Shown here piece after piece: positions 6,737 to 43,500 of a stretch of DNA of 64,000 nucleotides. The position numbers and the translations under genes are program-made. Location: assembly GCA_045541795.1 (NCBI GenBank), contig JAZQJV010000018.1:118236-182235 (forward strand), read 5' to 3'. The notes under the pieces were generated by a model, which did not search any database, was not told where the DNA came from, and was given only the letters and a program-made list of their open reading frames with translations. How positions within the stretch are numbered: position 1 is the stretch's first letter; every line of letters begins with the position of its first letter. Source of the DNA: Patescibacteria group bacterium. Lineage in GTDB: Bacteria; Patescibacteriota; Microgenomatia; UBA1400; PJMF01.

Positions 6737-6747
6737 AGTGGCTATTA

Positions 6748-6776: not shown

Positions 6777-6838
6777 TACTGATAATTAATTATTATTGGC
6801 ATTTATTTTCAATTCTTGCAAAAACAACTTCATACTGT

Positions 6839-6907: not shown

Positions 6908-6922
6908 CGATGAAAGTGAAAC

Positions 6923-7256: not shown

Positions 7257-7355
7257 TCCTAACAAAGCCTAATCCTTATTACATATAATACTTTTACATT
7301 TGCGTTTTTATTATAACTACGTTATAATAACACAAACTTTAAGGAAAATATAAAC

Positions 7356-8429: not shown

Positions 8430-8438
8430 AAAGTAAAA

Positions 8439-9119: not shown

Positions 9120-9148
9120 ATGACTCTATTGCTTCCAGTAAGGAAAGT

Positions 9149-9490: not shown

Positions 9491-9502
9491 CATTCATTGT
9501 CC

Positions 9503-10165: not shown

Positions 10166-10269
10166 TACTATATTATAACACGAGCAGACATTTTGAAAGC
10201 TCAAAAATATAGCGTCCAGTTTTTACAACTTTCGCTCATTTCACCTTACCGGTATGGTATAATACCCCT

Positions 10270-10695: not shown

Positions 10696-10735
10696 CGATC
10701 ATTACTGTGTAAAACTGGTACAAAACGCTACAGGT

Positions 10736-11833
10736 ATGGTGCAAACATTGATTAGGCGCTATTGGCAAACTGCATTCGCTGTTGTCCTCGTGTGTCTGTC
10801 ACTGTGGCAGCTGAGGTCTTTGTGGACTCTTCACCAATTAGATTTTCACGTTTATTATCAAGCTGGTAAAGCTTGGCGAGATGGCGGTGATCCTTATGGC
10901 GATCTAGGTCTTGGTGAAAGTTTGACCTTCCTTTATCCCGCCCCTGCTTTGCTTATCTTTTGGCCGCTTTCATTTTTGGATCTGGAGACAGCACAAAAAG
11001 TGTGGTTGCTCATCAATCTGAGTTTGATTTTTGCCAGTGTTTATTTGTGTCTCACGCTCCATCGCACGAAAATTGCCTTAGCATCAGTAATGCTGTTTTA
11101 TGCTTTTGTCCTGCAAACATTTAGCGTCAAGTATAATCTTGGCATGGGGCAGATTAATGTTTTAGTGTTATTTTTGGTTTTATCCACCTGTCACTTGCTT
11201 TCTCGCCAGCATACAAGGTTAGCGGGTTTCTTTTTAGGGCTGGCGGGCGTCGTTAAAATCTGGCCTTTGGCCTTGTTGCCGTTTTTGTTATCTAAAAAAC
11301 AGTGGACAGTGTCTATAGTCGCCATTCTCACATTTTTGCTGCTTCAATTGCCTTGGTGGCAGACGACGGCGCGCAGTTTTGCCGCTGTCAGCGCGCACTT
11401 ACATACGGCAGGGTCAATCAGCGATGACGTCTACGACCAGTCGTTTATTGTTGCCCTTAATCGTCTGATGAATTGGTCGGGATGGAAAATAGTAGTGCCG
11501 GCCGCGATGATCGCCATTTACGCCTTTGTAAGCTATCGCTTTGGCCAATGCTTACCAATTGATGAAGTTTGCTTGTTTCTAATCATTCCCATCATTTTTG
11601 CGGCGTCGCCGGTGTACGCTCACTATCTGATTTATCTTTATCCGTGCTTATATCTATTACTCCGGCGCCATTGGCTGGCTTTGCTGTGTGCTTGGTTGTC
11701 GGTGCAAATTAAAATTGGTACGGATACAGTGTGGTATTTACGCTCGTATTATGCATGGTGGGCAGCATTGCTTTGTATTATAGCATTGGTTTATGGCGGC
11801 AGCAAAAAGAATTGGCATCGACTTCCCGTATAA
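10736..11833 (+). CDS. polytopic membrane glycosyltransferase, DUF2029/GT87-like
   Basis: DFHVYYQAGKAWRDGGDPYGD in the first loop resembles the DUF2029/PimE-type signature. More than 9 predicted TM segments. Confidence 0.5.
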   Translation: MVQTLIRRYWQTAFAVVLVCLSLWQLRSLWTLHQLDFHVYYQAGKAWRDGGDPYGDLGLGESLTFLYPAPALLIFWPLSFLDLETAQKVWLLINLSLIFASVYLCLTLHRTKIALASVMLFYAFVLQTFSVKYNLGMGQINVLVLFLVLSTCHLLSRQHTRLAGFFLGLAGVVKIWPLALLPFLLSKKQWTVSIVAILTFLLLQLPWWQTTARSFAAVSAHLHTAGSISDDVYDQSFIVALNRLMNWSGWKIVVPAAMIAIYAFVSYRFGQCLPIDEVCLFLIIPIIFAASPVYAHYLIYLYPCLYLLLRRHWLALLCAWLSVQIKIGTDTVWYLRSYYAWWAALLCIIALVYGGSKKNWHRLPV

Positions 11834-12025
11834 ATTTTCTCCTGGTGTCGCGTTTCGGGTTTGTACCTAGGTAATTCCAATTTCCTTTTCGCATTTTTTA
11901 TGGTATAATCACGCATCTTACTCACTTTCACGGTCAGATCATCACGGTTTTGCTCGTGGAGGCGGGTGAAATCAGATCTTTGACAAGTGAAGTGAAATCA
12001 TACATCCTTAAAGGAGGAATTTCCA

Positions 12026-14049
12026 TGAAGTTGAAGTTTTGGGTTTTGAGTTTGGCAGCAGTGTTGTGTTTCCCCGCTCTTGCGTCTGGTGCGAGCATCG
12101 AACAGATCTTGGCTAGCATGAGTACTAGCGATAAGATCTGTCAGCTCCTGATCCCAGCCTACCGCAAGACGGCCAGTAATGACGCCACTGTCTTAAGCAG
12201 CGACGCGGCGGCACTCATCAGTCAGTATCCTTTTGGTGGTTTTATCGTTTACGGCGAAAATCTTGTCGACAATGACGCCGGCGTCCGGTTCATCCATGAC
12301 GTCCAACGTGCTAATATCAGCGCTGATACCGGCCGGCCGCAATTGCTCGTAATGACCGATCAGGAAGGAGGCCTAGTCTATAGGCTTACTCACGGCACAA
12401 GCGGCATCTCGCCGATGGCTATGGGTGCGGCTAGAGACAGCACTGCCACTCAGACGATCGCCAAAATCCTAGGCACTGAAGTGTCGGCCCTCGGCATTAA
12501 TTGTAACCTCGCTCCAGTACTCGACGTCGTCACCAATCCGCGCGGTTATATCGGCCTGCGGGGTTTCGGCATTGATCCGCAGCTGGTAGCCGATCAAGCC
12601 AGTAGCTATCTGCGCGGCCTGCGGGAGGCGGGTGTCCTAGGGGCAGTCAAACATTTCCCCGGCACAGGCAGCGCTCAGGAAAACACAGATGGGGCCAATT
12701 TGCCCGTCGTCATTAGTAAGACCCTTGAAGAGCTAGAGTCTTGCGATCTCATTCCTTTCCGCCAGGTGATCAAGCAGGGCCTGGTAGACATCGTGATGGT
12801 TTGCAATGACAGTTTTTCAAGTATAGAAACGCGCCAATTTACCGGCTCTGACGGCCAGCAATATGCCCTCCCTGCTTCAGTTTCCCCGGCGATTATCAAT
12901 GACCTGCTGCGCTGTGGGCTCGGCTTTGACGGCCTGGTGCTCACTGATGCACTCTTGGGCACAGTCATGGCCGCACAGTTTAGTGCCGTGCAAGTCTTAG
13001 AGTTGGCTTTGCAGGCAGGCGCCGACATGATGCCGTACGCTTTAGACCTCAACTCAGTCGCGAGTGTGGCGGCATTCCAGCAGGCCCTGGAGACTTTCAC
13101 TGCACGGGTGGACGCGGATCAACAATTGCAAGGTCTACTAGACACTGCTGTCAGGAGGATTTTGACGTTTAAAAGTCGCCATGAACTCCTGACTCCGTAT
13201 GCTCGCTCAGATTCTTGGGCGGCTAGTCAGGCACAGACGGTACTCCAGAATGTCAGCAACCAGGCTCATCACGACCTCCAGTGGCCGGTTGCTTTGAGTG
13301 CGGTCACGCTGGTGGAAAACCGTAATCAGGCTTTGCCGCTTAGCGGTGATGAGAGAGTGGCCATCCTCTATTATTACGCTAGTCAGGAAGCATCAGTGCA
13401 ACTTGCTCTTGACCGGCTTGTAGCTGACGGTCAGCTGACAAGCAGCCAGGCGGCAGACGTCCTTAATCTAGACGTCCACGACGAAAACTTAAGCGAACTG
13501 CTCACCGGCGTGGACACCGTAGTCATTTTAAGCTCTGTCTATTATGAATCGGAGTTGAGCCCAGATTCTCCCTCTCCTTACAGCGACGAAATCAGTATCG
13601 TGCTGCCACTCCTGTCAGAACTCGCTGGTCGTGGAGTCAAAATCATTCACGCCAGTTGTCATCTTCCTTACGACATCGGGCTGTATCTGGGGCGAGTGGA
13701 TGCCATCCTGGCTTGCTATTTGGCCAACGGGATCTCCCTTCCTATCACCACACCAGATAATCAGCCTCGTTACGGCGTTATGGTACCGGCACTCGTTTAC
13801 AAGCTTTTTGATCAGCGGGGAGATTTTTCCGCCCGACTGCCCGTAGACATTTACACTATTAATGGCGGGCAGTATCAGCTAGACGATGTCCTTTTGTCTC
13901 GCGGCTGGGGTCTGACACTGGCTGGTGACGTCATCACTGATCCGGTAGCGACTCACCAGAGCTCTAGCGGCGGCTGTAATGCTTTGTCGGGATTGTGGCT
14001 GTGGACGGGCATTCTTGTTTTCGCCTCTAGCAAAAAGTACCACTGCTGA
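12026..14049 (+). CDS. secreted glycoside hydrolase family 3 (beta-N-acetylhexosaminidase-like)
   Basis: Signal peptide (MKLKFWVLSLAAVLCFPALASGA). GH3 N-domain motifs (LVMTDQEGG, GINCNLAPVLDV, KHFPGTGSAQENTD). The AAAGGAGG ribosome-binding site lies 8 nt upstream. The leader is about 115 nt from TTTTATGGTATAAT. Confidence 0.7.
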
Positions 14050-14125: not shown

Positions 14126-15766
14126 CTATTTGGCCCCAAGTTTAGCTTCACTAGTGGCTGGTTTTTGCTCCCACAAAATAAACTCTTCTCCCCGCTGCAG
14201 GATTTGATAATTACTCAGCAATGCTGCCGGGAAAAAATAACCTTCATCATCTATCGTATAAGCAGCATACTCATATTCGGGAGCGTATTCATGCTGCATC
14301 TCACTGCTACCGTAGCGTGTTACTATCAGGTCTGGTGTCCGCTTGGCTATCATTTCGATGATCTCACTAAATACTTCTGGCGCCCCGGCGCGTGATAGTG
14401 TTGGCACCATGTAGTAACGCCCAGCATTGACAGCATTTGTCCCGTGGAAAAACGTATACCAACTATACGGATACAAAGCCAAAAGTTTTGGCGCGGGCGC
14501 ATAGCTCATGATGGCCGTCATGACATCTTGTTTTTCGGCGTAGATAAAATCCCTCGTGCTCTGGTAATTACGACTCAAAACAGCTGCTGTCGCCAGCACG
14601 CAGATCACACTATAAGCGGCAAATTCTGGCAAGTGAGGTTGCAAAATTTTCTCGTCCAATACCAATATTAGCATCAGCGCCAAAATCCCCATCACCCAAA
14701 ACCAATCATAAAAATGCCCGAAAACACCGTTAAAAACGATCCCGCCAACCAACAATGAGATCAGCAACACTTTAAACTGTACCGGGCACTTTTTCAAAGT
14801 TAAAAATAGCACGCTCACGAGTAAGTACACGAGCGACCAGGTGTGATTGGCTGGCAAATTCCACATCAAAGCCAATTGCTCCATGATTTTGAGGATTTTA
14901 GCCACCAAACTACCACCGGCTTGATTACCATAAGCACGAAAGGGAAGAAGAAAATAATGATAAATCAAATCAGCCCAAGCTCCATGAACGGTATACCAGG
15001 CAGCAACCAACAAACACACGCCCAAAAAACCGCCACCAAAGCCGGCCCAGAGCCTTATTTGGTCGCCCGCGCGCCGCTTAGAAATCCAGCCTAGGTAACC
15101 CAGTGTCACCAAAAAAATCCCAATATCTGTGTACTTACACCAAAAAACAACTCCAGCTAGCAAGCCCAAAATGACACTAGCTACCAATTTAGACTTGCTA
15201 GGCAATTTGGTCCAGTTTTGCGCCAGGAGCACACATCCCAAAGTGCATGTTAAAAGCAAACTCCCGATCGAACCCAAAGCGGGTGCAATCGGCTGTGGCG
15301 GTAGACCTAGATATACCAATACTGTGGCTAAAAGCGCCAGAACCAGCCGATATTTTTCTTGTACCCGCACTGACACTAAAATTTGGTGCAGCAAAAAGAA
15401 ATTGACTAAAGCGAGACTGCATTGCACCAAAAACATCCCCCGGAAGACATCACCAGGGTAAAGCAGACCTATAAGACCCCACCAATACATCCATATCGGG
15501 CCTTTCATGTCAAAAAAGTCCCGGTGTGGGAGCTCTCCACGCCGGATAAAATCACTATAAGTAGCGTAAATGCCAAAATCATCACCCAGACCAAAAACTG
15601 ACTGCAACGGCGAGAAAGGACTGGCAAGCGTCACCACGCCTAAAATAGCAAAGCAAGTAATGAAAATACCGAAACACAGCCGAAATTTTGTGTTTTCTTG
15701 CCAATAAGTAATTAGTTTGTGCATATTTGCTATTATATCATACCAAGTATTCTTCACGCTTAGCAA
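14126..15766 (-). CDS. polytopic membrane protein, possible GT-C-type glycosyltransferase
   Basis: More than 10 hydrophobic segments. The first loop (GDDFGIYATYSDFIRRGELPHRDFFDMKGPIWMY) resembles the acidic or KPPL-type loop of GT-C enzymes. C-terminal soluble domain. Confidence 0.4.
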   Translation of the reverse strand: MLSVKNTWYDIIANMHKLITYWQENTKFRLCFGIFITCFAILGVVTLASPFSPLQSVFGLGDDFGIYATYSDFIRRGELPHRDFFDMKGPIWMYWWGLIGLLYPGDVFRGMFLVQCSLALVNFFLLHQILVSVRVQEKYRLVLALLATVLVYLGLPPQPIAPALGSIGSLLLTCTLGCVLLAQNWTKLPSKSKLVASVILGLLAGVVFWCKYTDIGIFLVTLGYLGWISKRRAGDQIRLWAGFGGGFLGVCLLVAAWYTVHGAWADLIYHYFLLPFRAYGNQAGGSLVAKILKIMEQLALMWNLPANHTWSLVYLLVSVLFLTLKKCPVQFKVLLISLLVGGIVFNGVFGHFYDWFWVMGILALMLILVLDEKILQPHLPEFAAYSVICVLATAAVLSRNYQSTRDFIYAEKQDVMTAIMSYAPAPKLLALYPYSWYTFFHGTNAVNAGRYYMVPTLSRAGAPEVFSEIIEMIAKRTPDLIVTRYGSSEMQHEYAPEYEYAAYTIDDEGYFFPAALLSNYQILQRGEEFILWEQKPATSEAKLGAK

Positions 15767-20389: not shown

Positions 20390-22195
20390 ATGCAGTTTAG
20401 TAAATTAAGCCAGACGCTACTTGACATCGAAGCAATCAACGCGCGCTTGCAAATCACTCAGATTTTATCAAAACTCTGGCCGCAGCTGGACGAGCGTGAA
20501 TTATGGCAAGCTGCCAACCTTATCCAGGGACAATTACAACCGCCCTATGAACAGCTTGTTTTTAGTCTGTCCGTGAAAATGATCGCCCGCGCTCTGGTGC
20601 AGCTGGCGCTCGCCAATGGTGGCTTGGCTGGCGGCGTAAGTGTGGATTTATTTGGGCAAGCTGATGAACAGTCACTTACTGATCAAATTAAAGCGATACA
20701 TCGCCGTTTTGGTGACTGGGGCGAGACGGCAGCGTCAGTGCACACCGAGCTTTTTGGTGCAAAAGGCTCTAATTTGAGCATTAATGATGTGTATACCAGA
20801 CTGACCGCGATTGCCAAGATCAGTGGCGACGGTTCACAACAGGCTAAGCTTGATGCCTTGGTCTCTTTACTGTCTGCAATTGATGCCTCGAGTGCTAAAT
20901 TTGTGATCAGGATGGTGATCGGCAAACTGCGTTTGGGTTTTTCTACGATGACGATTTTAGACAGCCTTTCGTGGGCGGTTTGCGGTGATAAATCCGAAAG
21001 CAAACTGCTAGAAAGCGCCTGGCAAAAAAAAGCTGATGTTGGCTTACTGGCGGCCGCCTACTTGCCACTGCAAAACCTCACGCCGCTCAAGCGCCGGGAA
21101 AAATTAGCTGCAGACTATCACGCGAGCGTGGGCGTACCTTTAGTGCCGGCTTTGTGCCAACGGCTCAATTCTACCACTGACATCATCGAAAAGGTGGGCG
21201 CTACCATCGCTGAGCCTAAATATGATGGCATGCGCATCCAAATTCACGTCCGCCGTCAGGGTGGGCTGCAAGTTTTTGCTTTCACCAGGAGTTTGGAAAA
21301 TGTTTCTCACATGTTTCCAGAGCTACAAGAATTTGCCAGTAGCCTCGATGTGGATGCCGCCATTTTTGACTCAGAAGCTGTGGGCTTTAATGCTCACACC
21401 GGGCAGATGTTGCCTTTCCAAGAGACCATTAGTCGGCGTCGGCTTCACGACGTCGATCAAAAAGCTCAGTCCATCAAAATGAAATTTTTCATTTTTGACG
21501 TTTTACTTTTAAATGAGCAGGAACTCATCACGACGCCCTTGGCTGAGCGCAAAAAACTACTGCGCCAAACAGTTGCCGATAGCGACGTCGCGCAGGTGAC
21601 GAGTTTTATCGTCACTAGTGATCCCGGACAGCTGCGCCAGTTCCATGAACGCCAGCTCCAGCTTGGTCTGGAGGGGATGGTGGCCAAAGGGGAGAGCAGT
21701 GATTATCAAAGCGGCCGCAAAGGCTGGCACTGGGTCAAGATTAAAGAAGCAGAAGGTACTCGTGGCAAGCTCAATGACACCCTTGATTTAGTAGTCATGG
21801 GTTATTATTATGGTCAGGGCCGGCGGCATGATATGGGCGTGGGAGCGATTCTTACAGGCGTGTTGGCAGATAATGGTGATATTGTCACGATCAGCAAAAT
21901 CGGCACCGGCTTTACTGATGAAAATCTTTCTTCCTTCCACTCTCAAGCAGAAAATTACCGTACAGATACCAAGCCCACCGACTACCAAGTAGGCAAGCAG
22001 CTGATACCGGATGTGTGGTTGAGGCCGCACCTAGTAGCCGAAATTGCTGCTGACGAGCTTACTCGCTCTACCATGCATACAAGCGGCTACGGCCTCCGTT
22101 TCCCCCGCATTATCCGGTGGCGAGACGATAAAACCGCTGCTCAAGCTACCACCCGCAGCGAGCTGGCATCCATTACTATAGATAAAGGAGATTAA
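20390..22195 (+). CDS. ATP-dependent DNA ligase
   Basis: Adenylation motif I (EPKYDGMRIQIHV). Downstream OB-fold region. About 250-aa N-terminal DNA-binding domain. The near-leaderless promoter tgTGgTACAAT lies 7 nt upstream. Confidence 0.7.
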   Translation: MQFSKLSQTLLDIEAINARLQITQILSKLWPQLDERELWQAANLIQGQLQPPYEQLVFSLSVKMIARALVQLALANGGLAGGVSVDLFGQADEQSLTDQIKAIHRRFGDWGETAASVHTELFGAKGSNLSINDVYTRLTAIAKISGDGSQQAKLDALVSLLSAIDASSAKFVIRMVIGKLRLGFSTMTILDSLSWAVCGDKSESKLLESAWQKKADVGLLAAAYLPLQNLTPLKRREKLAADYHASVGVPLVPALCQRLNSTTDIIEKVGATIAEPKYDGMRIQIHVRRQGGLQVFAFTRSLENVSHMFPELQEFASSLDVDAAIFDSEAVGFNAHTGQMLPFQETISRRRLHDVDQKAQSIKMKFFIFDVLLLNEQELITTPLAERKKLLRQTVADSDVAQVTSFIVTSDPGQLRQFHERQLQLGLEGMVAKGESSDYQSGRKGWHWVKIKEAEGTRGKLNDTLDLVVMGYYYGQGRRHDMGVGAILTGVLADNGDIVTISKIGTGFTDENLSSFHSQAENYRTDTKPTDYQVGKQLIPDVWLRPHLVAEIAADELTRSTMHTSGYGLRFPRIIRWRDDKTAAQATTRSELASITIDKGD

Positions 22196-22196
22196 A

Positions 22197-23384
22197 ATGC
22201 GCATTGCGATGTTTACTGATACCTTTTACCCCAAAAATGATGGCATGTCTACCAGTACGCAGCATCTGGCCGTCAGTTTAGCTGCCTCTGGTCATCAGGT
22301 CTTGATTGTCGCTCCCAAAGTTCACCGTTCTTCCCTCGATTTTACTCTTCCTGGCGTGCAAATCGTCTGGCTTACTTCCATTCCCGCGGGATTATATCCT
22401 GATCTACGCCTTGCTTCCTGGTCACCGCGCCTCCACAAAAAGCTCCACGACTTCGCGCCAGAAGTTATCCACGTCATGTCACCGATGCCAGTTAGTCTGA
22501 CGGGCATGGCTTACGCCAAAGTACAGCGCCTACCTATCGTCATGACTTTTCACACTTATTTTATGGATCCCGAATACCTCAAAGTCATTCATATAGATAA
22601 ATCCAGTCGGTCAAAATTTGTGGAAGAACTGGGCTGGGATTTGGCCAAAACTGTCCACGCTCGCGCCGATGTCACTATTGCTCCCACAGACTTTGTCGCC
22701 GCCGACCTCAAAAAGCGCAATTTCAAGCAGCCCATCCTCACTATCCCCAGCGGCGTGCAGATCAAAAAAAAACCTCTCTCACGAGAAAAAATCGCCAACC
22801 TGCGTCAATCACTAGGGATTAGTGATGATAAACGGGTGATAGTTAGTATTGGGCGTGTCAGTCAAGAAAAAAACCTGCGCGGTCTGCTGCGGGTGTTTCA
22901 AGCAGCACACCGTGAAGTCCCAGAAGCTTGCCTGCTGGTAGTCGGCGGCGGGCCTGATCTCGAAGCTGTCAAAAAGTACGCCGCTAAACTCGATCTTGCA
23001 GATAGTGTCATTTTCACCGGCGATGTCCCTCACGAAAAAGTTTTGAGCGCTGGTTATTACGCACTGGGTGAATTTTTCACCACCGCCAGCATGAGCGAAA
23101 CTCAAGGCATGACGAGCGTCGAAGCTCAGATATACGGTTTACCAGTAGTGGCTTATCACTCTAAAGGCTTACCTTTTGTCATCGGTCAAGCGGGCGTCAT
23201 GGTGACGGAAAATGACGAGTCAGCTTTGGCGAGGGCAATGATAGATTTGCTGTGTCAGCCGCATCAACTGGAAGCGTTGCGTGAAAAAGTCACTGCCAAC
23301 TTAGCTCGCTTTGACATTAACCATACTACTAAACAAATTGTAGAAGGCTACGAGCTGGCGCTGACAATTAATCATTCCCAATAA
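22197..23384 (+). CDS. GT4-family glycosyltransferase (GT-B)
   Basis: MRIAMFTDTFYPKNDGMSTSTQHLAVSLAASGHQVLIVAP in the N-terminal Rossmann half. C-terminal E-x7-E motif (SETQGMTSVEAQIYGLPVVA). Confidence 0.65.
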   Translation: MRIAMFTDTFYPKNDGMSTSTQHLAVSLAASGHQVLIVAPKVHRSSLDFTLPGVQIVWLTSIPAGLYPDLRLASWSPRLHKKLHDFAPEVIHVMSPMPVSLTGMAYAKVQRLPIVMTFHTYFMDPEYLKVIHIDKSSRSKFVEELGWDLAKTVHARADVTIAPTDFVAADLKKRNFKQPILTIPSGVQIKKKPLSREKIANLRQSLGISDDKRVIVSIGRVSQEKNLRGLLRVFQAAHREVPEACLLVVGGGPDLEAVKKYAAKLDLADSVIFTGDVPHEKVLSAGYYALGEFFTTASMSETQGMTSVEAQIYGLPVVAYHSKGLPFVIGQAGVMVTENDESALARAMIDLLCQPHQLEALREKVTANLARFDINHTTKQIVEGYELALTINHSQ

Positions 23385-23694
23385 GATCGGCAAGACTGTC
23401 AACTTTTTTCGGCATAGTCTTGCTCATCACTGTCCACATCCGGATTTGTTTGGGATCTTCGCTAAAGTCAGCGTCAGTGACCTCACTGGTGGCGACTGCA
23501 AGACTATCGCTGCTGTCCTGCACTGCTACTTCTACCCGGCACATCCCCAGCGGGTGCAAATCACTGGCAAAAGTTCGCAAGAAAATCAGTTTACCACCTT
23601 TTTTCTGATAAGCAAAACGTTCCGGCTTAGTGACGGTACTAGCTATTCTTTCAATGAACTCATCAGGATCTTGATTGGCGTTAATGGCGATCAT
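23368..23694 (-). CDS. hypothetical protein (about 108 aa)
   Basis: ORF trimmed to the MIAINANQ start. No known motif. Overlaps the GT4 stop by 17 nt. Confidence 0.3.
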   Translation of the reverse strand: MIAINANQDPDEFIERIASTVTKPERFAYQKKGGKLIFLRTFASDLHPLGMCRVEVAVQDSSDSLAVATSEVTDADFSEDPKQIRMWTVMSKTMPKKVDSLADLIGND

Positions 23695-23813
23695 TTTGTC
23701 CTTTTTGTGCGCAATTTGTAAAATTATGTTCACTTTTTCCAGATGTAGGTGTTTAACATTTGTTAAACATTTGTTTAACAAACTGCCAAACGCATTGATA
23801 AATTTTACCTACC

Positions 23814-23890
23814 AATTGGTGACTCCAGAGGGATTCGAACCCTCGATCTTTTGGATGAAAACCAAATATCCTGGACCGCTAGACGATGGA
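23814..23890 (-). tRNA. tRNA-Glu (anticodon UUC), CCA encoded
   Basis: Reverse complement GGCTCCATCGTCTAGCGGTCCAGGATATTTGGTTTTCATCCAAAAGATCGAGGGTTCGAATCCCTCTGGAGTCACCA. It has a 7-bp acceptor stem (one GU pair), GG in the D-loop, anticodon stem TTTGG/CCAAA with loop TTTTCAT (U33, UUC, A37) and T-arm GAGGG-TTCGAAT-CCCTC. Confidence 0.8.
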
Positions 23891-23910
23891 GCCAGCTTTC
23901 AAAGAACTCA

Positions 23911-23956: not shown

Positions 23957-26050
23957 TTATGGCTTATTTTTGGTTTTGACCGCTGATTTGCTTTTTAGCG
24001 CAAATAGTAAACTGAGCACGCACTCCTTAATGCTTGGCCGATGATAGGCACGAGCACACACATTTTTTTTATCAAATGTCAGCCGTCGAAACGTAAAATG
24101 ACGTTCGCGTTCCAATAAAAAACGTAAAATTTTCTCGCTGGCCACTCCGGCGGCCACATATGCAGTACTGCCGAGCTGCGGCATCGCGACGCCAAAAGGA
24201 GTAATTTTTTGTCCTCGCACATACAAACCCATTTCATCACGCACGGCATTTTCTAGTCCCACCATCCGTGCTGCCACTTGCAAAAAATCACCTGAGAGCA
24301 TAGCTTGGAGTTTATCGTCACCAAGCCCAAACACCAGCGACTCACCACGCTTAGCGGCATCACTATTTTGGAAGGTAAGCTGAGCGATAGAGCCTACGTC
24401 AGATACCGCCACCACCGCCACGTTTTCTTTCCGGGCAATTTCGAGAATCGCCAATTTATCTTTGAGCGTATCTATCGCTTCTACCACTACGTCCACTTTT
24501 TGACCGGTAATGCCACCGGTCAGCCAGACAGTAAGGTTTTCTCGGTGAAAGCCATCGGCAGATAAATAAATGATTTGCGTGGGGTCTTGACGATGCAGAC
24601 GTCTGGCAAAATCCACACTTTTGGTGTCATGACTGGCGGCATCCAAAACGTCATAATTGGTGCGGTTAAAATTGGTAACATTTGGTCCTTTGGGATCACC
24701 GATACTTAGGTATCCGATCCGGCCGTCGCGGATCAAGTTTTCTGCCGTGGCGCTAGCCACACTTGCTCCGGCCACCAGTACGTGGGCCCGTGCAAAAATC
24801 AAACGAGCCTCCAGCCAAGAAATCGAGTAGGCACGGTCTTGTAGCAGCTGACCTGGGCTGGAGTTGAGTGCCAATTTCCAGGCCGGCAAAGGAGGGAATT
24901 GTACAACTGCTTCCAGTTGTCCGGTACGCGTAAAATAAAAGCCAAAAAACCCGTAATTCATTTTGTCGGTCAAATGCTCCCAAGCACTAAATTGCTCCGC
25001 TAAATATCGTGCCACCGGACCTTTGTCTGTAGAGAGGTTCTCTTTGAGTTTAGCGTAAGTACTCTCGACTAAAGTATAAAACTTGCCGCCTACATTTTCA
25101 AAAGTTTGCCCGGCAAAATTGACACTTAAATGCTGATCGCTCAGATCAAAAATCCGCGCGCTGGCTACTTCTTCCCATGACATCAAAATCGGACGTCCGG
25201 GATAAAAAGTGGCTGGATGAGCGAGTTTGTCTCGTACAAAGCTCAAATTCCATTCGTTGGTAATCAGCTCCTGCCAGATGTACTCGTCGCCAGCTGACGG
25301 CATATTAGTTGTATTTTCGCCTTGATTTTCGGTTTTATTTATACGGTCACTGCGTAAAGCAATTTCGTATGGTCTGCAGTTGTGGAAGTATCGCGGCCAA
25401 TGTGCCAGCATAAATCTCGTCTGCTCGTTGTCTGCAAGTTTGGCCTGCGCCATTTCCCGAGCCTCAATCCCGCACCGATCCATAAATGCTTTCACATTGG
25501 TGCTCATCGTGCAAGCCAACCATGATTTGGGCATATCTAAGTCTGCTGTTAAAGTCTGCACGAGACCATGTAAAATCTGGATTCTTAGCTCGTCATCATG
25601 AGTGAGGTCAAAATAAGGATGAAAGGCCAGTCGTTCAAATTCATAAGGTACTTGCCCGGTTTTTTGGTACGGCCAGCCGTCAGGCATTGTAAAAAACTGG
25701 AAGAGTTCAAGCCTCTCGTGCACTAGTCGTAGTGTCCCCAAAATTACACCTTGGCTGCAAGCAACTGCCGTTTTGATGTGGGCGTCACTGCCTGTTTCGT
25801 TAAAAGTCATGCGTTTGGGATCACTATTTGTCGCATAGCGGCCATTGTAAGCGACGCTTATAAGCGGTTGCAATAAAATGTAATCTGCGGGTTGGGCCAA
25901 ACGGTAAGAAATTCCCGCTTGCGCAAACGAGTTTTTTAAATTGCCCAAATTGCTAATTAAAGCCGCCGCATCCGCTAAAACTGCCTCGTCACTAGTGTGC
26001 TGTTTTAGCTTATTTAGATATAGTTGAGTGGTAGTTGGTGCAAAATTCAT
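23957..26050 (-). CDS. two-domain protein with a LuxI/N-acyl-amino-acid-synthase-like acyltransferase N-terminus and a ThiF/MoeB E1-like adenylyltransferase C-terminus
   Basis: N-terminal blocks (DAHIKTAV, GVILGTLRLV, YEFERLAF) follow the AHL-synthase/NAS pattern. C-terminal VLVAGASVASATAENLIRDGRIGYLSIGDPKGPNVTNFNRTNY aligns with the ThiF motif (VLVvGaGGLGs.aa.yLa.aGVG.l.lvD.D.Ve.SNLnRQ), followed by DVVVEAID. Start placed at MNFAPTT to leave room for divergent promoters. Confidence 0.5.
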   Translation of the reverse strand: MNFAPTTTQLYLNKLKQHTSDEAVLADAAALISNLGNLKNSFAQAGISYRLAQPADYILLQPLISVAYNGRYATNSDPKRMTFNETGSDAHIKTAVACSQGVILGTLRLVHERLELFQFFTMPDGWPYQKTGQVPYEFERLAFHPYFDLTHDDELRIQILHGLVQTLTADLDMPKSWLACTMSTNVKAFMDRCGIEAREMAQAKLADNEQTRFMLAHWPRYFHNCRPYEIALRSDRINKTENQGENTTNMPSAGDEYIWQELITNEWNLSFVRDKLAHPATFYPGRPILMSWEEVASARIFDLSDQHLSVNFAGQTFENVGGKFYTLVESTYAKLKENLSTDKGPVARYLAEQFSAWEHLTDKMNYGFFGFYFTRTGQLEAVVQFPPLPAWKLALNSSPGQLLQDRAYSISWLEARLIFARAHVLVAGASVASATAENLIRDGRIGYLSIGDPKGPNVTNFNRTNYDVLDAASHDTKSVDFARRLHRQDPTQIIYLSADGFHRENLTVWLTGGITGQKVDVVVEAIDTLKDKLAILEIARKENVAVVAVSDVGSIAQLTFQNSDAAKRGESLVFGLGDDKLQAMLSGDFLQVAARMVGLENAVRDEMGLYVRGQKITPFGVAMPQLGSTAYVAAGVASEKILRFLLERERHFTFRRLTFDKKNVCARAYHRPSIKECVLSLLFALKSKSAVKTKNKP

Positions 26051-26126
26051 ATTTGACTTTCTGTAAAATTTGTAGTACAACATTAACAATCATAAATTAG
26101 TGATGATTATAAACGAGGAACGTTAT

Positions 26127-27791
26127 ATGTCAAGGACTAAATATGAATTTGAATTATATCAGGCTGAGCCGATGGCCGACCTGAGAGAAGTTATTAATTA
26201 TGCCGCCCAAAGTTACGCCGATAAACCGGCGTTTATTTTTCAGCAGCACCTTGAGGATGAGCCAGAAAAGATCACTTTTGCTCAGTATCGGCAAGATATT
26301 AAAGAAGTCGCCTGCGGGTTGATTAGCGCGCTCCGGATTGACGTTAGTCGTCGTGACAGCAAAAAAATCGCACTGCTTGCGCCTAATAGTTACTGGTGGT
26401 CAGTCTGCTACCTGGCCGTCACTACCATCGGTCATGTCATCGTGCCTCTAGATCCTAATTTGCCTAGTGATGATTTACTATCATTTATGAAGCGCGCGGG
26501 AGTAAGTTCGGTCATTTTCACGCCTACTATCAATGATAAAATTGCCAGCCTTAAAAATTCTTTGGTCAAAATGAAGCATTACATCGCCATGGGCGAAGCC
26601 AGTGAGGCCACAATTACACTAGAAAAAGTGCGCGCTGCCGGCATCAAGCAACTGCAAAAAAATCCGGGTCTTTATGATGAGATCACTATTTTCCCAGATA
26701 GCCTGTCGACTTTGCTTTTTACCTCTGGTACCACTTCTACACCCAAAGCAGTAATGCTCACTCACAAAAACCTCGCCTCAGAGTTGGCTGGTATGCGCCA
26801 GTTTAACGACTTCCAAAACGAACGCCTACTTTCGGTACTTCCACTTTACCACTCGTATGAGTTTATGGTAGGGTTACTTTTCCCGATCTACTGCGGCTGC
26901 ACTATTTACTATTTGCCGGGCGGCTTGCGCGCTTTCACCGATCAACTCGAGCGTGTTCGGCCGACAGTGATGGTCTTAGTACCTTTGGTGATCGAGGAAG
27001 CCTACCGCCGGGTACGAGCAAGTTTGGATGATCCCGAAGATCACGAGGCCTTGGCGGCAGCCCTAAAAAATTACTACGGCGGACAACTGACGAGAATCAT
27101 TGATGGCGGCGCGCCTATCAATAGTGACATCGCCGAGATTTACGACCGCTCCGGCATCAAGCTCCTGCAAGGCTACGGCATCACGGAATGCTCACCAGTA
27201 GTTTCCATGAATCCAGACCGCTATTACAAACCACGCAGTATCGGTATGCCGTTGCCCAATATCCGGGTGAAGATTTTTGAGCCCGATAGTGAGGGAGTGG
27301 GGGAAGTCATCGTGCGCGGGCTCACAGTCATGCTTGGCTACTATAAAGATGAGCGCAAAACTGATCAAGCCATCATTGACAATTGGTTGCACACGGGTGA
27401 TTATGGCCGCTTCGATGAAGATGGTTTTCTCTATGTGGTGGGGCGCAAAAAAAACGTTATCATCGGTAAAAACGCCAAGAAAATCTACCCGGAAGAAGTA
27501 GAATATCATCTCACCTGCTGCCCGGAAATTCGTGAGGCGATGGTTTACGGTCAGGCAGTAGATGATGATACCAAAGTCGCGGCTTTACTGGTGATTGACG
27601 AGGATAATTTCCGCCGTTACCACAGCGAACTCGGCTCTAAGCCGACACCTGAACAAATCCAAAAAGTGATGGCGGGAGTAATTGAAGCTGTCAACCAGGC
27701 GAATGTCAAATACAAGCGCATCTATAATTGGCAGATTGTCACCGCCTTACCGCGGACAGCAACAGGTAAAATAAAAAGGAATCAAGTTTGA
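26127..27791 (+). CDS. AMP-dependent synthetase/ligase (fatty acyl-AMP/CoA ligase-like)
   Basis: AMP-binding motif LLFTSGTTSTPKAVMLTHKNL. C-terminal GDYGRFDEDGFLYVVGRKKNVI and a TGK near the C-terminus. Confidence 0.7.
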   Translation: MSRTKYEFELYQAEPMADLREVINYAAQSYADKPAFIFQQHLEDEPEKITFAQYRQDIKEVACGLISALRIDVSRRDSKKIALLAPNSYWWSVCYLAVTTIGHVIVPLDPNLPSDDLLSFMKRAGVSSVIFTPTINDKIASLKNSLVKMKHYIAMGEASEATITLEKVRAAGIKQLQKNPGLYDEITIFPDSLSTLLFTSGTTSTPKAVMLTHKNLASELAGMRQFNDFQNERLLSVLPLYHSYEFMVGLLFPIYCGCTIYYLPGGLRAFTDQLERVRPTVMVLVPLVIEEAYRRVRASLDDPEDHEALAAALKNYYGGQLTRIIDGGAPINSDIAEIYDRSGIKLLQGYGITECSPVVSMNPDRYYKPRSIGMPLPNIRVKIFEPDSEGVGEVIVRGLTVMLGYYKDERKTDQAIIDNWLHTGDYGRFDEDGFLYVVGRKKNVIIGKNAKKIYPEEVEYHLTCCPEIREAMVYGQAVDDDTKVAALLVIDEDNFRRYHSELGSKPTPEQIQKVMAGVIEAVNQANVKYKRIYNWQIVTALPRTATGKIKRNQV

Positions 27792-27847
27792 GCTTGCATT
27801 TTGCGCGCAAACGTTATATAATATTAAAAAGTTGTCTGAAAGGGGTT

Positions 27848-28243
27848 ATGTCAGATAATGCAAAAAAAATCTTACTCGTAGAAGATGAAACAGAACTGCG
27901 AGAGCTATACAAAATCCTCTTACAAGGGGAGAATTATCAGGTAGATGCTGTCGGTGACGGCAAAGCCGGACTGGAAGCAATGAGTCGCGGCGGCTATGAT
28001 TTGGTCCTTTTGGATATCATGCTGCCATTCATTGACGGACTAGATGTGCTTGAGCGCAATGCTAAATCGGATATTGCTACCAAGCAGCCCAATAAATCCG
28101 TGGTTTTGCTTACCAATTTGGCTCAAGACCAGACCATTGCCAAGGGGCTGGAGTACGGCGTGCGTGGTTACATGATCAAAAGTGACTACAACCCAGAACA
28201 GCTATTGGAAGCGGTCGCTGATTTCATCGCCAATCCGGCTTAG
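27848..28243 (+). CDS. single-domain response-regulator receiver (CheY-like)
   Basis: KKILLVEDE...YDLVLLDIMLP..DG matches a receiver domain (phospho-acceptor Asp in LLDIM). No output domain. Confidence 0.65.
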   Translation: MSDNAKKILLVEDETELRELYKILLQGENYQVDAVGDGKAGLEAMSRGGYDLVLLDIMLPFIDGLDVLERNAKSDIATKQPNKSVVLLTNLAQDQTIAKGLEYGVRGYMIKSDYNPEQLLEAVADFIANPA

Positions 28244-28250
28244 GTGCCGT

Positions 28251-28631
28251 TTACATCCCATCTACCAATGTGGGGACACTGATGCCACTAGCATCTGTGC
28301 CGAAGGCCACCGTCAGGACGAGCTGGAAAACGGCCCAGGTGCATGCCAACACTAAAATACCGATAATGGCGGCTAAAATCTGATTACGGGCGTCTTCGAC
28401 TTTACCCTTATCGCCGCCAGAAGCGATCCAGTGAATGGCGCCCATGATGAGGTGATAAAGAGTTAGTAAAGCCGCTACCATGATAGTGAGCGTAAACACG
28501 TTATGCAAAAGCGAGCCAGCACTGGGGTTGATTTTCAGACCGCCGACGCCATTGGGATCGAGATCGTTGAGATTAAAAACCCCCGCCGAAAACAGCGGAA
28601 TACTTGCCAGTTGACCGTACTTTTTATTCAT
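28251..28631 (-). CDS. small two-TM membrane protein, VirB2/TrbC pilin-like (paralog A)
   Basis: TM1 is followed by the loop ASGGDKGKVEDARNQ and then TM2 (ILAAIIGILVLA). This aligns with the loop and TM2 of the 40090 gene (SGGNPSGFETAKNTFTYAIFGFVLA). Confidence 0.4.
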   Translation of the reverse strand: MNKKYGQLASIPLFSAGVFNLNDLDPNGVGGLKINPSAGSLLHNVFTLTIMVAALLTLYHLIMGAIHWIASGGDKGKVEDARNQILAAIIGILVLACTWAVFQLVLTVAFGTDASGISVPTLVDGM

Positions 28632-28880
28632 TTACACTTTCTAACAATAAGTACTATTATATACCCATTTGATCATTTTGTCAAGAGGGGAAACGCATTC
28701 CGCTGTCACCAAGATTATCGGAACTGTATCCCATCTAGTAAATACGGATTGGCTGGCGCCGTGGCTTCATCAGCCGTCAGATTAAAACGTTTCACCGTAT
28801 TCCATAAAAGATATAGTTTGTCAAAGGTGAATGCAACTGCCACCCACATTGTCATCCAAGCGTGATATAATAAGATGTAG

Positions 28881-40089: not shown

Positions 40090-40563
40090 ATGAAAAAATG
40101 GAGTGTGATCGCAGTTTTAATTTTGAGCCTGTTTGCGGGACGGCCAGCACATGCTGCCCCTTACGAAAGTTGGAAGAGTTCCAAAATGTGCACAGGCGCT
40201 AAAGACACGCTTTCTGAAGACGTTGCCACTATCGCTGGTATCGTTTGCCTGATCGCCAATGCCTTAAATGCCGTCCTGACGCTGTTTTCCTTCGTCGGCT
40301 TCCTCATGTTTGTGTATGCCAGTTTTATGCTCATGATCTCTGGCGGTAATCCCAGCGGCTTTGAAACAGCGAAAAATACCTTTACTTACGCAATTTTTGG
40401 CTTCGTGCTGGCTTTATCATCATTTGTGATCATCAATCTTATTTCTTATTACACTGGCCTCAATAGCTTCTTTGTCATCAAATTCTTGCCCAATACTATT
40501 TCTGGCAGCGCCAGCAGTGGCGGTACAGGCGGTAGCGGTACGGGAGGTACAAGCGGGCCATAA
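40090..40563 (+). CDS. VirB2/TrbC pilin-like secreted two-TM protein (paralog B) with Gly/Ser-rich tail
   Basis: Signal peptide (MKKWSVIAVLILSLFAGRPAHA). TM1, loop SGGNPSGFETAKN, TM2, and a C-terminal GSASSGGTGGSGTGGTSGP. Confidence 0.45.
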   Translation: MKKWSVIAVLILSLFAGRPAHAAPYESWKSSKMCTGAKDTLSEDVATIAGIVCLIANALNAVLTLFSFVGFLMFVYASFMLMISGGNPSGFETAKNTFTYAIFGFVLALSSFVIINLISYYTGLNSFFVIKFLPNTISGSASSGGTGGSGTGGTSGP

Positions 40564-40564
40564 T

Positions 40565-43500
40565 ATGCGCATTGATAAATTCTTACCGGCAAAACGTTGG
40601 CAAACTGTTATCATTGGGGTCAGTTTGGTTTTTGGCTGCATGATGTCGCTGCAAAATTTGCACCTAGACCTAGTTTCTGACGTCTGGAGTGCGCAGTATC
40701 AGGATGTTTATAGTCAAGTGATGAGTATTTTCCAGTCACGAGGTGAGACCATCCCTACTAATGTCGCCGCCGACATCATCGAGCGTTCTGGCGGTGATCA
40801 AAATCAAGCTATAGCTACTCTGGAAAAGTATCTCAACGTCTACAAAGCTTTGCAAGCGCGTAATCCTGATGTCTCTTCTCTAGTCATCAGTTTGATCGCC
40901 AAACAGTACCCAGATAATTACTCACAGGCCAGCACAGCTTTGTCGCAGACGGTCTCGACAGCTAAGCAGATCCAGGACTACCAAAATATAAATACTATTG
41001 CGGCGCAAATTGTGGCCGCTTTAGGGATTAATAATAGTTTCACGCAGACACTCTCAGACGCTTATGACGTCGTCAATAATGCCAGTAATATGGGCCAGCA
41101 GATGAACGTCAACAATATCGCCGCTCAAATTTTGTCTGCGCTCGATCTTACCGGAGAACTATCCTCGGGTTTTGGCAGCCAGGCTGATTTGCAAAATACG
41201 CTTCAAAGCATGACTAGATCGTCCCTCTTGCAAAGTCAAGACGCTAAGGATGTCCTCGGTGCCTTAGACATTTTCACGCCGGGTAATTTCTCGTCTGATG
41301 CCGGCAGCGTGAGTAAAATTGCCAGTGATCTTTTAGGCGGAAAACTTTCAGACACGGTCAAAAGTGTGGTAGATAAAGAAATTGCCGAAAGTTTGGGCGC
41401 GCTTAATCTAGGTAGTTTGTCTGGTCTTAGCGAAGGTAAAGGGAATTTTTCTGGCATTCTTGAGCAGGTGACATCTAAAACTGCCGGTGAAGCTGGCAAA
41501 TACAAGGATGTCTACGAAACCGTCACCAAAGGTATGAGCACTCAGGACATCGTCAAAATGGGCACCGACAAAATCAAAGACAGTATCTTAGATAATTCTA
41601 CCCTCGACCAGGAAAAAGCCGCTCAGGAAACCAAAAAAGAACTTGACCAAGAGGCAAAAAAAGCCGTAGACGAGGAAAAAAAACTACAGGATGAAGGATT
41701 GATTGATCCGTCGAGCGTACCAAGCAGTAGCCCTTCGCCTTCTTCAACTCCCGATCCTTCAGCCAGTCCTTCACCATCACCTTCCGCAAGTCCTTCTCCT
41801 GGTGCCAGCCCGTCGCCAGGGGCGAGCCCGAGTCCCTCTCCGTCTGCTAGTCCGTCACCGAGCGCTTCGCCGTCGCCGTCAGCGTCACCGAAAGCAACTG
41901 AATACATCAGAAGTGGTGCACAGGGATCCTTTATCACCGCTATCATAGATAAACTCAGAATGAGCGGCACGGCCGAAAATATTAAGGAAGGTTTTGCTGC
42001 TAAAATGATCGCCAAGAATTTATCGCTGGAGGGATATGAAGCCTATCATATCAAAACTGTCAGCCGTTTGCAGCCCTATATGAATTTTTCTCATCGCCGT
42101 AACAATGTAGATTTTAGCCAAGCCAAAGTACCCCTCATGCGCAATAGTAACTACAAACCTGAACGGCTTAATTCTGCCGAAAATTATTACGGCTATAATG
42201 CCCGGGTAGGAGTGAATGACACTGATATCCTTACTGAGTCAGCCTGGGTCGCCAAAATGTCGCAGCCTGTCAAATGCAGCCTCAAAGCCGCCAATCTTGC
42301 CTATATCGTGCGCACTTGCGACATTCTTCATGAAGACACATGCGAAGGTCTATACCTGACCGCTGATGGCAGTGAAACCATCAAAGATACTAAGATCAAA
42401 GTCCATGATTTGGCTCTTGCGGTGACAGCCATTCTCATCACTGATGGCAGCCAACGTGACGAGTTAATCAATGCGGTGGCGCTCGCTTTGGCGACGGGCA
42501 AAGGCGATCTTAGCGGCATCATGGGACAAGTAACCAATATTATTAATAGTATTGGCGGTGAGAATTCAGATGTACTGTCGCGTTTGCTGGCTATGGCTTC
42601 AGATAAAGTCATGGAACCTATCTATGATAACCGGATTCCTTTTTGTGAGACACTTTATAATACTCCAGCCACAGCGGCTACGGATGAGACGGGCTTACTG
42701 CTAGAAATGGCCAAAGGCAACATCCAAGCGGAGGATATGGGCAAAATTTATCTGCGCTGGGCGATGGAAAAATTGGACTTTTACCTGGCACGTGAATACC
42801 GCACTGCATACCTAGTGCAAACTACAAGAATCTGCCCGGTACGTCGGCAATTTATCTGCTCTAAATCCTCACCCGTATATAAGTATGCACCAGCACCCAC
42901 AGGCACCTGCTTAGTACAACTCCCCTGTATACCTGGTATCACCCCAGATCAGGTGCGTGTATATCCATTCAAAATCCCAGATCTTTTCACCAATAAGAAT
43001 TTTTGCAAAACGTCTGATCTAGAATATCCTGGGCTCTTGAATGACGTCAAATGTGAGCCCTCTGAGCAATTCCAATATGCAGACATGATACAAGAATATC
43101 ACGATCCGGCACTTTTACAAAAAAATTTCCTCATGAATATGGAGCAGATCCGCGCTGAACGTGAAGAGTTTTTAGCAAAACGCAAAACTCGCGCCCAGCA
43201 CTCTGCCGAAGCCTGTACGGCCAATAGTGCTACCACTCTTGCCAAAATGCAAGAGGCCGACTTAACATGCACCGACAAAAATGTGCTTAGCGGTGATCTG
43301 ATTGACTGTGAAAACTGCAATGGCGAAGCCAGACGAGTCAAAGCGGCTCTAGTGAAAGTCATCAACGGTGCCATCAAACATGGCGAACTTTACAAAATCG
43401 AAAATCCCAACGGCAACTCGCCGGGTACTGATGATGTCAGCGGCGGGCTTAGTAGTTCCGCCATTACCACTTCTGCCGTGAATCCGCTCGAACCAGCTAT

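Follow-up and report, generated by a model that had tools for sequence, protein, structure and literature searches.

A predicted acyltransferase and ThiF-like cyclase fusion encoded beside a fatty-acid ligase and a stand-alone receiver in an uncultured bacterium

We analyzed a 64-kb stretch (positions 118,236 to 182,235, forward strand) of contig JAZQJV010000018.1 from the assembly GCA_045541795.1, labeled as a Patescibacteria group bacterium; the term window refers here to this stretch at its full length. Our subject is a locus at 23957-28243 in which a fused gene coding for a putative N-acyltransferase and a ThiF-like domain is transcribed divergently from an acyl ligase and a CheY-like receiver. 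On balance, we favor the view that this cassette provides three enzymes for a fatty-acyl amino-acid derivative, by an oxazolone-type pathway without an oxidase, and, less certainly, that the product is a signal.

Layout of the locus

The fused gene lies in a minus-strand open reading frame (ORF) at 23957-26089, which has 710 amino acids (aa) if counted from a TTG. The gene most likely starts at the ATG at 26050, giving a protein of 697 aa, because a 98%-identical homolog (P0001) begins MNFAPTT. The length of 698 aa in the original prediction equals the translation of 23957-26053 and begins one codon ahead of this ATG. We have kept the 698-residue translation for residue numbers, and numbering from Met-1 is obtained by subtracting 1. 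The features of the locus are the following.

25358..26050, minus strand: N-terminal domain (residues 2-232), probable FeeM/LuxI-like GNAT-fold acyltransferase, predicted N-acyl amino acid synthase
25295..25357, minus strand: linker at the fusion junction (residues 233-253), nonconserved and of low model confidence (predicted local distance difference test, pLDDT, 33-43)
24788..25294, minus strand: middle domain (residues 254-422), N-terminal extension specific to the cyclase clade (hhalign, residues 324-408)
23957..24787, minus strand: E1/ThiF-like domain (residues 423-698 and stop codon), predicted ATP-dependent carboxylate-adenylating cyclase (Foldseek and profiles)
24752..24772, minus strand: variant nucleotide loop A-G-A-S-V-A-S (residues 428-434; translation checked)
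26106..26133, minus strand: sigma-70-like consensus promoter of the fused gene, within the 76-nucleotide (nt) divergent intergenic region (TTGACA-16-TATAAT, 12 of 12 positions)
26127..27791, plus strand: AMP-forming acyl-coenzyme A (acyl-CoA) synthetase-like ligase, 554 aa, divergent from the fused gene (PF00501, E 3e-69)
27848..28243, plus strand: stand-alone CheY-like receiver, 131 aa, probably cotranscribed with the ligase (PF00072, E 1.4e-20)

The ligase probably starts at the ATG at 26127 and not at the GTG at 26100, since the perfect minus-strand promoter occupies 26133..26106. With its start at the ATG at 27848, the receiver is a 131-aa sequence identical to one already public. The motifs on which the original prediction was built all occur in the translations: DAHIKTAV (position 90 of the 698-aa form), GVILGTLRLV (102), YEFERLAF (137), RTNY (464), and DVVVEAID (521) in the fused protein and TSGTTSTPK in the ligase (residue 199 of the 554-aa form). 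A tRNA-Glu gene (anticodon TTC, 23817-23893, minus strand), 64 nt downstream of the fused-gene stop codon, closes the unit. The tRNA gene stands between the fused gene and a 137-aa ORF (23368-23781), which overlaps the end of a glycosyltransferase family 4 (GT4) gene and shows no conservation among related loci.

Domains of the fused protein

The closest characterized parallels to the fused protein come from the N-acyl oxazolone pathways. In these, OxzA, TyzA, or TrzA, which are N-acyltransferases, make an N-acyl aromatic amino acid from acyl-CoA (bioRxiv 10.1101/2020.06.11.147165, PMC10404671, PMC12856293), and a ThiF-like cyclase (TyzB or the ThiF domain of OxzB or TrzS) closes the N-acyl amino acid to an oxazolone with ATP (same three papers; review PMC12596934). 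A nitroreductase-type flavin oxidase, fused to the cyclase or encoded beside it, then desaturates the oxazolone (bioRxiv 10.1101/2020.06.11.147165, PMC10404671, PMC12856293). In Mycobacterium tuberculosis, Rv1355c is TrzS and Rv1356c is TrzA (PMC12856293).

(i) ThiF-like domain. The assignment of the C-terminal region to the E1/ThiF-like fold is well supported. For this domain, Foldseek retrieved UBA5, AclA, BubCD, ThiF, PaaA, and MoeB at E values of about 1e-10, and a family profile compared with Protein Data Bank (PDB) sequences gave TcdA as the best solved relative (E 6e-9); the structural model of the full-length fused protein has a pLDDT of 81. For AclA (9egb), one of the top Foldseek matches, we found no describing paper. 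The best curated family for the window protein is NCBIfam NF005901, named "Rv1355c family," which matches all 54 aligned relatives of the core, more than any other model. In an exhaustive search of 1.84 billion representatives with a core profile, 745 matches were obtained at E <= 1e-3, and these include ThiF-nitroreductase proteins, one of which has a cluster member named "Rv1355c family protein."

The nucleotide loop had been described as GxGxxG-like, and this has to be corrected, as the sequence is A-G-A-S-V-A-S (428-434), one residue shorter than the GIGGVGS of TcdA. The loop AGASVAS is invariant in the close family and conforms to a G-x-S-V-G/A pattern, which reads GASVAS in the window family and GLSVG in true Rv1355c-family proteins. 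Because the variant loop is common to the Rv1355c family and TrzS is ATP dependent (PMC12856293), we do not take it as evidence of a dead ATP site. The residues G429, S431, D453, R464, K478, and D528 are invariant across the 54 relatives, and the Asp, Arg, and Lys expected for E1-type nucleotide binding and catalysis are thus kept even in distant relatives. By its position in the NF005901 alignment, D528 may correspond to Asp217 of TrzS, which is essential for cyclization by that enzyme (PMC12856293).

No cysteine is found among the invariant or near-invariant columns of the family, and those of the window protein are at nonconserved positions, which argues against a thioester relay or a ThiF/MoeB-type zinc site. 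This bears directly on the idea that the protein is an E1 enzyme for a ubiquitin-like protein or sulfur carrier (ThiF/MoeB or the Bil/Bub/Cap2-type defense systems) or a TcdA-type tRNA modification enzyme. The fold matches to UBA5, BubCD, ThiF, and MoeB and the position of TcdA as the best solved relative by sequence speak for it, but we consider it extremely unlikely, as the family has neither a CxxC zinc site nor a catalytic Cys, and no E2, JAB, or ubiquitin-like/ThiS/MoaD gene is present in any locus. In PADLOC, no model matches the fused protein or the ligase, and the only matches are weak ones of the receiver, via receiver domains of defense proteins. TcdA, the tRNA t6A cyclodehydratase, is like our prediction in that it uses ATP to activate the carboxylate of an N-carbamoyl amino acid, which it thereby cyclizes (PMC12596934), but its substrate is a tRNA, and it is a protein of 268 aa with the canonical GIGGVGS loop and with no acyltransferase partner or N-terminal extension.

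(ii) Middle domain. The region that the original prediction gave as about 200 aa of unknown sequence is in fact a conserved domain of about 170 aa, present in all the 445-aa short forms described below and matched by no Pfam model; the description still holds for its first half, for which we know of no relative. Homology to the N-terminal extension of Rv1355c-type proteins is seen in the second half, where residues 324-408 align with this extension in ThiF-nitroreductase (Rv1355c-family) proteins with an hhalign probability of 95% (E 1.9e-8), and both contain the block YG-x-[WF]-x-[FY]-Y. Two fold searches with a model of residues 1-425 gave no PDB match for the middle domain among the matches listed, a weak negative because GNAT matches filled the lists.

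The middle domain also contains a beta-beta-beta-alpha-alpha stretch, and PaaA appears among the Foldseek matches with long alignments. Both points would suit an E1-like enzyme of the MccB/PaaA type acting on a ribosomally synthesized and posttranslationally modified peptide, with the middle domain as a leader-peptide clamp and the GNAT-like domain acylating the peptide or giving immunity like MccE, which carries a GNAT domain. We find this very improbable. The middle domain aligns with the extension of small-molecule cyclases, the N-terminal domain matches FeeM and LasI best and not RimL/MccE-type acetyltransferases, and there is no conserved small ORF within the module, nor room for one, as its gaps are shorter than about 80 nt or its genes overlap. 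The downstream 137-aa ORF is not conserved, and no gene for a precursor peptide, acyl carrier protein (ACP), E2, JAB, or ubiquitin-like/ThiS/MoaD protein is conserved in the related loci.

(iii) N-terminal domain. In an AlphaFold2 model of residues 1-425, made from a 41-sequence alignment (mean pLDDT of 88), a GNAT-type beta-alpha pattern extends over residues 49-232, preceded by about 45 aa of additional, helical sequence at the N terminus. Foldseek with this model ranked FeeM first and also listed MesI and BjaI, and N-acyl homoserine lactone (AHL) synthases, including LasI, are among the best fold matches. FeeM and LasI, and not the RimL/MccE-type acetyltransferases, head the list. The modeled domain therefore probably belongs to the FeeM/LuxI-like subgroup, an assignment that we take as probable and not as proof, because the margin over generic GNAT proteins is modest. 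The original prediction of an N-acyl amino acid synthase or LuxI-like fold stands as far as the fold is concerned, with FeeM first by Foldseek, but not at the level of sequence models, as the thresholds of the FeeM and autoinducer-synthase hidden Markov models (HMMs) were not reached. The FeeM model (PF21926) matches only 3 of the 42 members of the N-domain family (best E 8e-5), and no autoinducer-synthase model is among the Pfam matches of the window protein at E <= 0.1. A profile of the 42 members retrieved nothing from PDB sequences even at E 10, and a profile search of a word-indexed database with the N-domain alignment added almost no extra homologs. The family keeps, almost without exception, a Glu-x-x-Arg motif in beta-4 (YEFERLAF), which we take to resemble the E-x-S-R motif of the LuxI family.

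(iv) Fused and split forms. A search of the word-indexed database with the fused protein gave 18 relatives, of which 4 are long and 14, at about 445 aa, comprise just the middle and ThiF-like regions. Where a genome has the short form, its gene is immediately preceded by one of 237-270 aa that has no Pfam match, with an overlap of 4-23 nt between the two, and these upstream genes align end to end with the N-terminal 235 residues of the window protein at 35-44% identity. Most relatives thus have the two halves as separate genes that overlap; fusion is seen in at least 5 close sequences and in P0106, a very distant relative of 738 aa. The junction (residues 233-253) is unconserved, differs in length among the fused homologs, and has low model confidence. 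In a rough neighbor-joining tree of the core, fused and split forms are intermixed, and since the distant P0106 is likewise fused, joining or splitting of the acyltransferase and cyclase has probably occurred repeatedly, and this speaks for cooperation of the two activities. The original prediction did not recognize this domain fusion, and the oxazolone papers cited here indeed do not describe an acyltransferase-ThiF fusion; as a gene pair, however, an N-acyltransferase with a ThiF-like cyclase is of a kind already known. In public databases, the approximately 20 known close family members are labeled only "ThiF family adenylyltransferase" or "hypothetical protein."

The conserved neighborhood

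We counted 12 distinct close loci (eleven plus L023). A search of 185,579 species-representative genomes yielded only eight loci, all from metagenome-assembled genomes (MAGs), with the labels "bacterium," "uncultured Pseudomonadales" (probably an automatic label), and "Mycoplasmataceae." The ligase is adjacent in all 11 close loci in which the upstream side is present, with a 3.3-kb insertion intervening in L007, and the receiver was found in 9 of the 10 whose contigs extend to that side. In 8 of the 12 (L001, L004, L005, L006, L007, L014, L016, and L023), the cyclase gene is directly followed by the gene of a histidine kinase of about 720 aa that has a HisKA_7TM (seven-transmembrane, 7TM) sensor. 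The flanking genes differ by locus and include SmpB, enolase, thioredoxin reductase, reverse transcriptase, PMT, a pilin-like gene, and HSP20; because these flanks vary, the linkage of the module is not simple synteny. The functional link of the fused protein with ligase and receiver proposed in the original prediction is thereby strengthened by a gene neighborhood conserved in related loci.

(i) Ligase. The divergent gene codes for an AMP-forming acyl ligase, as had been proposed. The PF00501 match reaches 234 bits, and models of AMP-binding C-terminal domains also match. The best NCBIfam models are those of long-chain-fatty-acid--CoA ligases, below their cutoffs, and the best solved relatives are all CoA ligases (oxalyl-CoA, fatty-acid-CoA, 4-coumarate-CoA, FadD13, and FadD5), with no fatty acyl-AMP ligase among them. 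From these matches, the economical reading of the ligase is that of a putative acyl-CoA synthetase and not a fatty acyl-AMP ligase, as OxzA, TyzA, and TrzA use acyl-CoA and the locus has no ACP gene.

The constant presence of such a ligase would also fit structural lipid metabolism, in which the enzymes make N-acyl amino-acid lipids for the membrane or envelope of a bacterium that is assumed to live on scavenged fatty acids, or detoxify fatty acids of the host, and the two-component system senses the state of the envelope and regulates the enzymes accordingly. Envelope genes (GT4, SpoIID, PMT, and pilin-like) do lie near the module in the window and in related loci. Known aminolipid pathways, however, need an O-acyltransferase and not an ATP-dependent ThiF-like cyclase; the flanking envelope genes vary while the association with kinase and receiver persists in distant relatives, and a stand-alone receiver cannot regulate transcription directly. 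We therefore regard a structural role as unlikely.

(ii) Receiver and kinase. The receiver is the most conserved gene of the module (66-85% identity across loci). It matches PF00072 only (74 bits), with no output domain, and in 8 orthologs of 127-131 aa the blocks EDE, LLDIMLP, LLTNL, and MIKS are conserved, so that the acidic pair, the phospho-acceptor Asp, the Thr, and the Lys are intact. In the original prediction the receiver was an orphan; this is right for the window, which has no kinase, but in most relatives the 7TM histidine kinase is inside the module. The literature on HisKA_7TM yielded only census or review papers, in which no ligand is reported.

In the most divergent close locus (L005, 4627-5505), a radical SAM/SPASM protein occupies the usual place of the receiver, and one can imagine it as a tailoring enzyme that acts on the product without oxygen. 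In L006 (2982-4792), a bAvd-like gene and a reverse transcriptase, the hallmark pair of diversity-generating retroelements, adjoin the receiver gene.

(iii) Distant relatives. The association with signaling genes reaches beyond the close loci. A HisKA_7TM kinase follows the distant fusion P0106 (locus L019), and a distant pair, P0079 (about 21% identity), has a HisKA_7TM kinase and a 130-aa receiver beside it, followed by a PilB-like ATPase. In L024 (32% identity; 6677-11930), acyltransferase (320 aa), cyclase (432 aa), and AMP-binding ligase (535 aa) form one overlapping operon in this order, which differs from that of the close loci; the genome carries flagellar genes (FapA) and does not look like one of the candidate phyla radiation. 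A major facilitator superfamily transporter, a possible exporter of the product, converges on this operon, with helix-turn-helix regulators beyond. Among ThiF-oxidase genes of the Rv1355c family, the one of a Myxococcaceae MAG (L020, 1811-11440) lies beside a hybrid histidine kinase, receivers, and a sigma-54 activator, and the one on a Rhodococcus plasmid (L021, 1869-2804) lies beside a GGDEF gene; the M. tuberculosis trzAS genes have genes of cyclic di-GMP turnover as neighbors (PMC12856293). As a possible counterpart of TrzA, the gene that precedes the Rv1355c-family gene of the Myxococcaceae MAG (687 aa) was compared and is unrelated.

(iv) Surroundings in the window. Directly after the receiver, at 28251-28631 on the minus strand, there is a 126-aa protein resembling type IV secretion system pilins (PF18895), with a perfect sigma-70 consensus promoter at 28656-28684 (minus strand). 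The same adjacency of receiver and pilin-like gene is repeated in L008 (77% identity), and with the pilin-like neighbor here and the PilB-like ATPase after the P0079 receiver, the output of the receiver may concern pili. The other flank of the module has an ATP-dependent DNA ligase and the GT4 glycosyltransferase (20390-23384, plus strand), a pair that is also found in L002 and L003, there on the opposite side of the module, which indicates local synteny with the nearest split-form relative.

The window holds many ORFs without Pfam match, which, with the pilin-like gene and the ATP-dependent DNA ligase, hint at a lineage of Patescibacteria-like type with small genomes. Large ones with none at E <= 0.001 are those at 40472-44137 (plus strand, 1,221 aa), 44007-45725 (plus strand, 572 aa), and 14126-15766 (minus strand, 546 aa), and the ORF at 48254-50128 (minus strand, 624 aa) has a weak, subthreshold Peptidase_C39-like match (E 5e-4). 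The G+C fraction is 0.34-0.38 in the first 8 kb, 0.54 around a glycosyl hydrolase family GH3 gene (11950-14049), and about 0.47 elsewhere, which may reflect acquired DNA.

Proposed pathway and its relation to known systems

The chemistry proposed in the original prediction, formation of an N-acyl amino acid combined with E1-like activation of a carboxylate, fits the type of pathway characterized for OxzAB, TyzACB, and TrzAS, and by analogy with these we can propose three steps. First, judging from its family and its conserved linkage, the ligase would convert a fatty acid, ATP, and CoA to acyl-CoA; if our assumption about the metabolism of the organism holds, the fatty acid is probably scavenged. 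Second, the N-terminal domain would move the acyl group onto the amine of an amino acid to give an N-acyl amino acid, as do TyzA, OxzA, and TrzA, which have the same fold neighbors as this FeeM/LuxI-like domain. Third, the ThiF-like domain with its extension would adenylate the carboxylate, and attack by the amide oxygen would yield a saturated 2-alkyl-oxazol-5(4H)-one, since TyzB, TrzS, and OxzB catalyze this closure and a TrzS deficient in its oxidase releases the saturated ring. The fusion would channel the intermediate from acyltransferase to cyclase.

Each of the three known systems resembles the window locus in part. OxzA and OxzB, of Pseudoalteromonas rubra and other Proteobacteria, are likewise an adjacent N-acyltransferase and ATP-using ThiF-like cyclase, and the ThiF-nitroreductase proteins of the OxzB clade carry the same type of G-x-S-V-G/A loop as the window protein, keep its invariant Asp, Arg, and Lys, and share a portion of its N-terminal extension. 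However, the fusion partner of the OxzB cyclase is a nitroreductase-type oxidase, whereas in the window it is the acyltransferase and there is no oxidase; the ligase, the receiver, and (in relatives) the 7TM kinase are linked in the window type of locus, and the sequence similarity is remote (41-42 bits to NF005901). TyzA (Rv2336) has FeeM and an AHL synthase as its closest structural homologs (PMC10404671), the same fold neighbors as the window N-terminal domain. TyzB (Rv2338c) has no fused oxidase, as in the window, but the separate flavin oxidase TyzC (Rv2337c) is encoded beside it; in addition, TyzB has 318 aa, in contrast to the core of about 445 aa with a longer N-terminal domain in the window, and organism and gene context differ. 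TrzS, of about 720 aa, is a ThiF-oxidase fusion, whereas the window protein is an acyltransferase-ThiF fusion that falls below the cutoff of the Rv1355c family. The trzAS locus lies beside signaling genes, as do the relatives of the window locus, and the saturated cyclized intermediate that is released when the oxidase of TrzS is disabled (PMC12856293) is the product that we predict for the window enzyme. FeeM differs in using acyl-ACP, while the window locus has no ACP gene, and the LuxI-type AHL synthases resemble the N-terminal domain in fold only.

Being reactive, the saturated azlactone is perhaps not what the pathway finally yields. For this reason, capture of the adenylate by another nucleophile is a real alternative, in which the same enzymes would form a lactone, thiolactone, or lactam through a side chain (such as an AHL-like N-acyl homoserine lactone whose synthesis needs no S-adenosylmethionine) or an N-acyl dipeptide or amide through a second amine. 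This would agree with the lack of an oxidase to stabilize the oxazolone by desaturation, with the AHL synthases among the best N-terminal fold matches, and with the membrane sensor kinase beside the genes in relatives; in PMC12150305 and in a review (PMC12596934), ThiF-like enzymes are described that form thiolactones, phosphoramidates, and indolylamide macrocycles. We nevertheless judge such an outcome to be rather improbable, as the closest curated ThiF-like relatives are oxazolone cyclases, which close the ring via the amide oxygen and release a saturated ring (PMC12856293), and nothing points to homoserine or any other particular amino acid.

Other observations count, like this reactivity, against the oxazolone-type pathway that we favor. 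PF00899 (ThiF) scores 26.3-27.8 bits, just below its threshold of 28.1, and the window protein reaches 41-42 bits with NF005901, for which the cutoff is 476. At the N terminus, the FeeM HMM gives a weak match over residues 63-148 (E 0.003-0.014; 15.6-17.9 bits against a threshold of 27), and the kinship of the modeled domain to OxzA, TyzA, and TrzA is one of fold only. A putative surrogate for TrzA, the 259-aa gene beside the Rhodococcus Rv1355c-family gene, gave no significant similarity to this domain (HMM E 0.038, hhalign E 0.11); even among themselves, OxzA, TyzA, and TrzA share little sequence identity (PMC10404671). No relative was found for the first approximately 70 residues of the middle domain. 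With five oxidase domains as tblastn queries, no flavin oxidase was detected in the window or in L001-L019 at E <= 1, nor in L023 or L024 at E <= 1e-3, and Pfam scans of the neighboring genes gave none either, although this oxidase is a defining component of all characterized oxazolone pathways. The 64-kb window contains no histidine kinase by tblastn with the L001 kinase or by Pfam on ten large ORFs, and none is found in L002, the nearest split relative of the window. A Parabacteroides relative encodes the two enzymes alone; its neighborhood contains no ligase, kinase, or receiver. The receiver of the module, in turn, has no output domain. A loss of the oxidase would fit an anoxic gut habitat, as O2 is needed by the oxidase of the known pathways; the habitat itself is suggested by the record titles of two related MAGs, which give goat jejunum as the source.

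The signaling layer is the least certain part of the proposal, and here the clue is gene neighborhood, recurrent across deep divergence. The product or its hydrolysis product would be a lipid signal sensed by the HisKA_7TM kinase, and the output would pass via the receiver by protein-protein contact. LuxM/LuxN, CqsA/CqsS, and AgrBD/AgrCA are signaling pairs of a synthase and a membrane sensor kinase, and as in these, the module has synthase genes in one unit with a polytopic kinase and a receiver. However, its enzymes and HisKA_7TM sensor are unrelated to theirs, and its receiver has no DNA-binding domain. We searched the literature for a link between Patescibacteria and a synthase of this kind and found none. 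The papers on OxzAB, TyzACB, and TrzAS leave the physiological role of N-acyl oxazolones unresolved and only suspect signaling.

What is known already is the pair of N-acyltransferase and ThiF-like cyclase; the oxazolone papers cited here describe neither an acyltransferase-ThiF fusion nor a form that lacks the oxidase nor a tie to a two-component system. The pathway type would thus be extended by an oxidase-free form with a dedicated fatty-acid ligase and with an acyltransferase-cyclase fusion that has apparently arisen or been split more than once, in uncultured bacteria of animal guts and other metagenomes. As a more speculative and rather doubtful extension, we can envisage an autocrine or quorum-type lipid signaling circuit in uncultured host-associated bacteria, possibly Patescibacteria (candidate phyla radiation), in which the fused enzyme makes a labile N-acyl oxazolone or lactone out of an amino acid and scavenged fatty acids, a dedicated HisKA_7TM kinase senses it, and the single-domain receiver relays the signal. 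Several lineages, among them relatives at about 20-30% identity, have a sensor kinase and a receiver tied to these enzymes, which gives a concrete and testable receptor candidate. If this circuit is real, it would be the first receptor and physiological role for oxazolone lipids, and if these bacteria depend on the lipids of a host, a signal made from fatty acids that they scavenge would be relevant to their perception of the host or of their own density.

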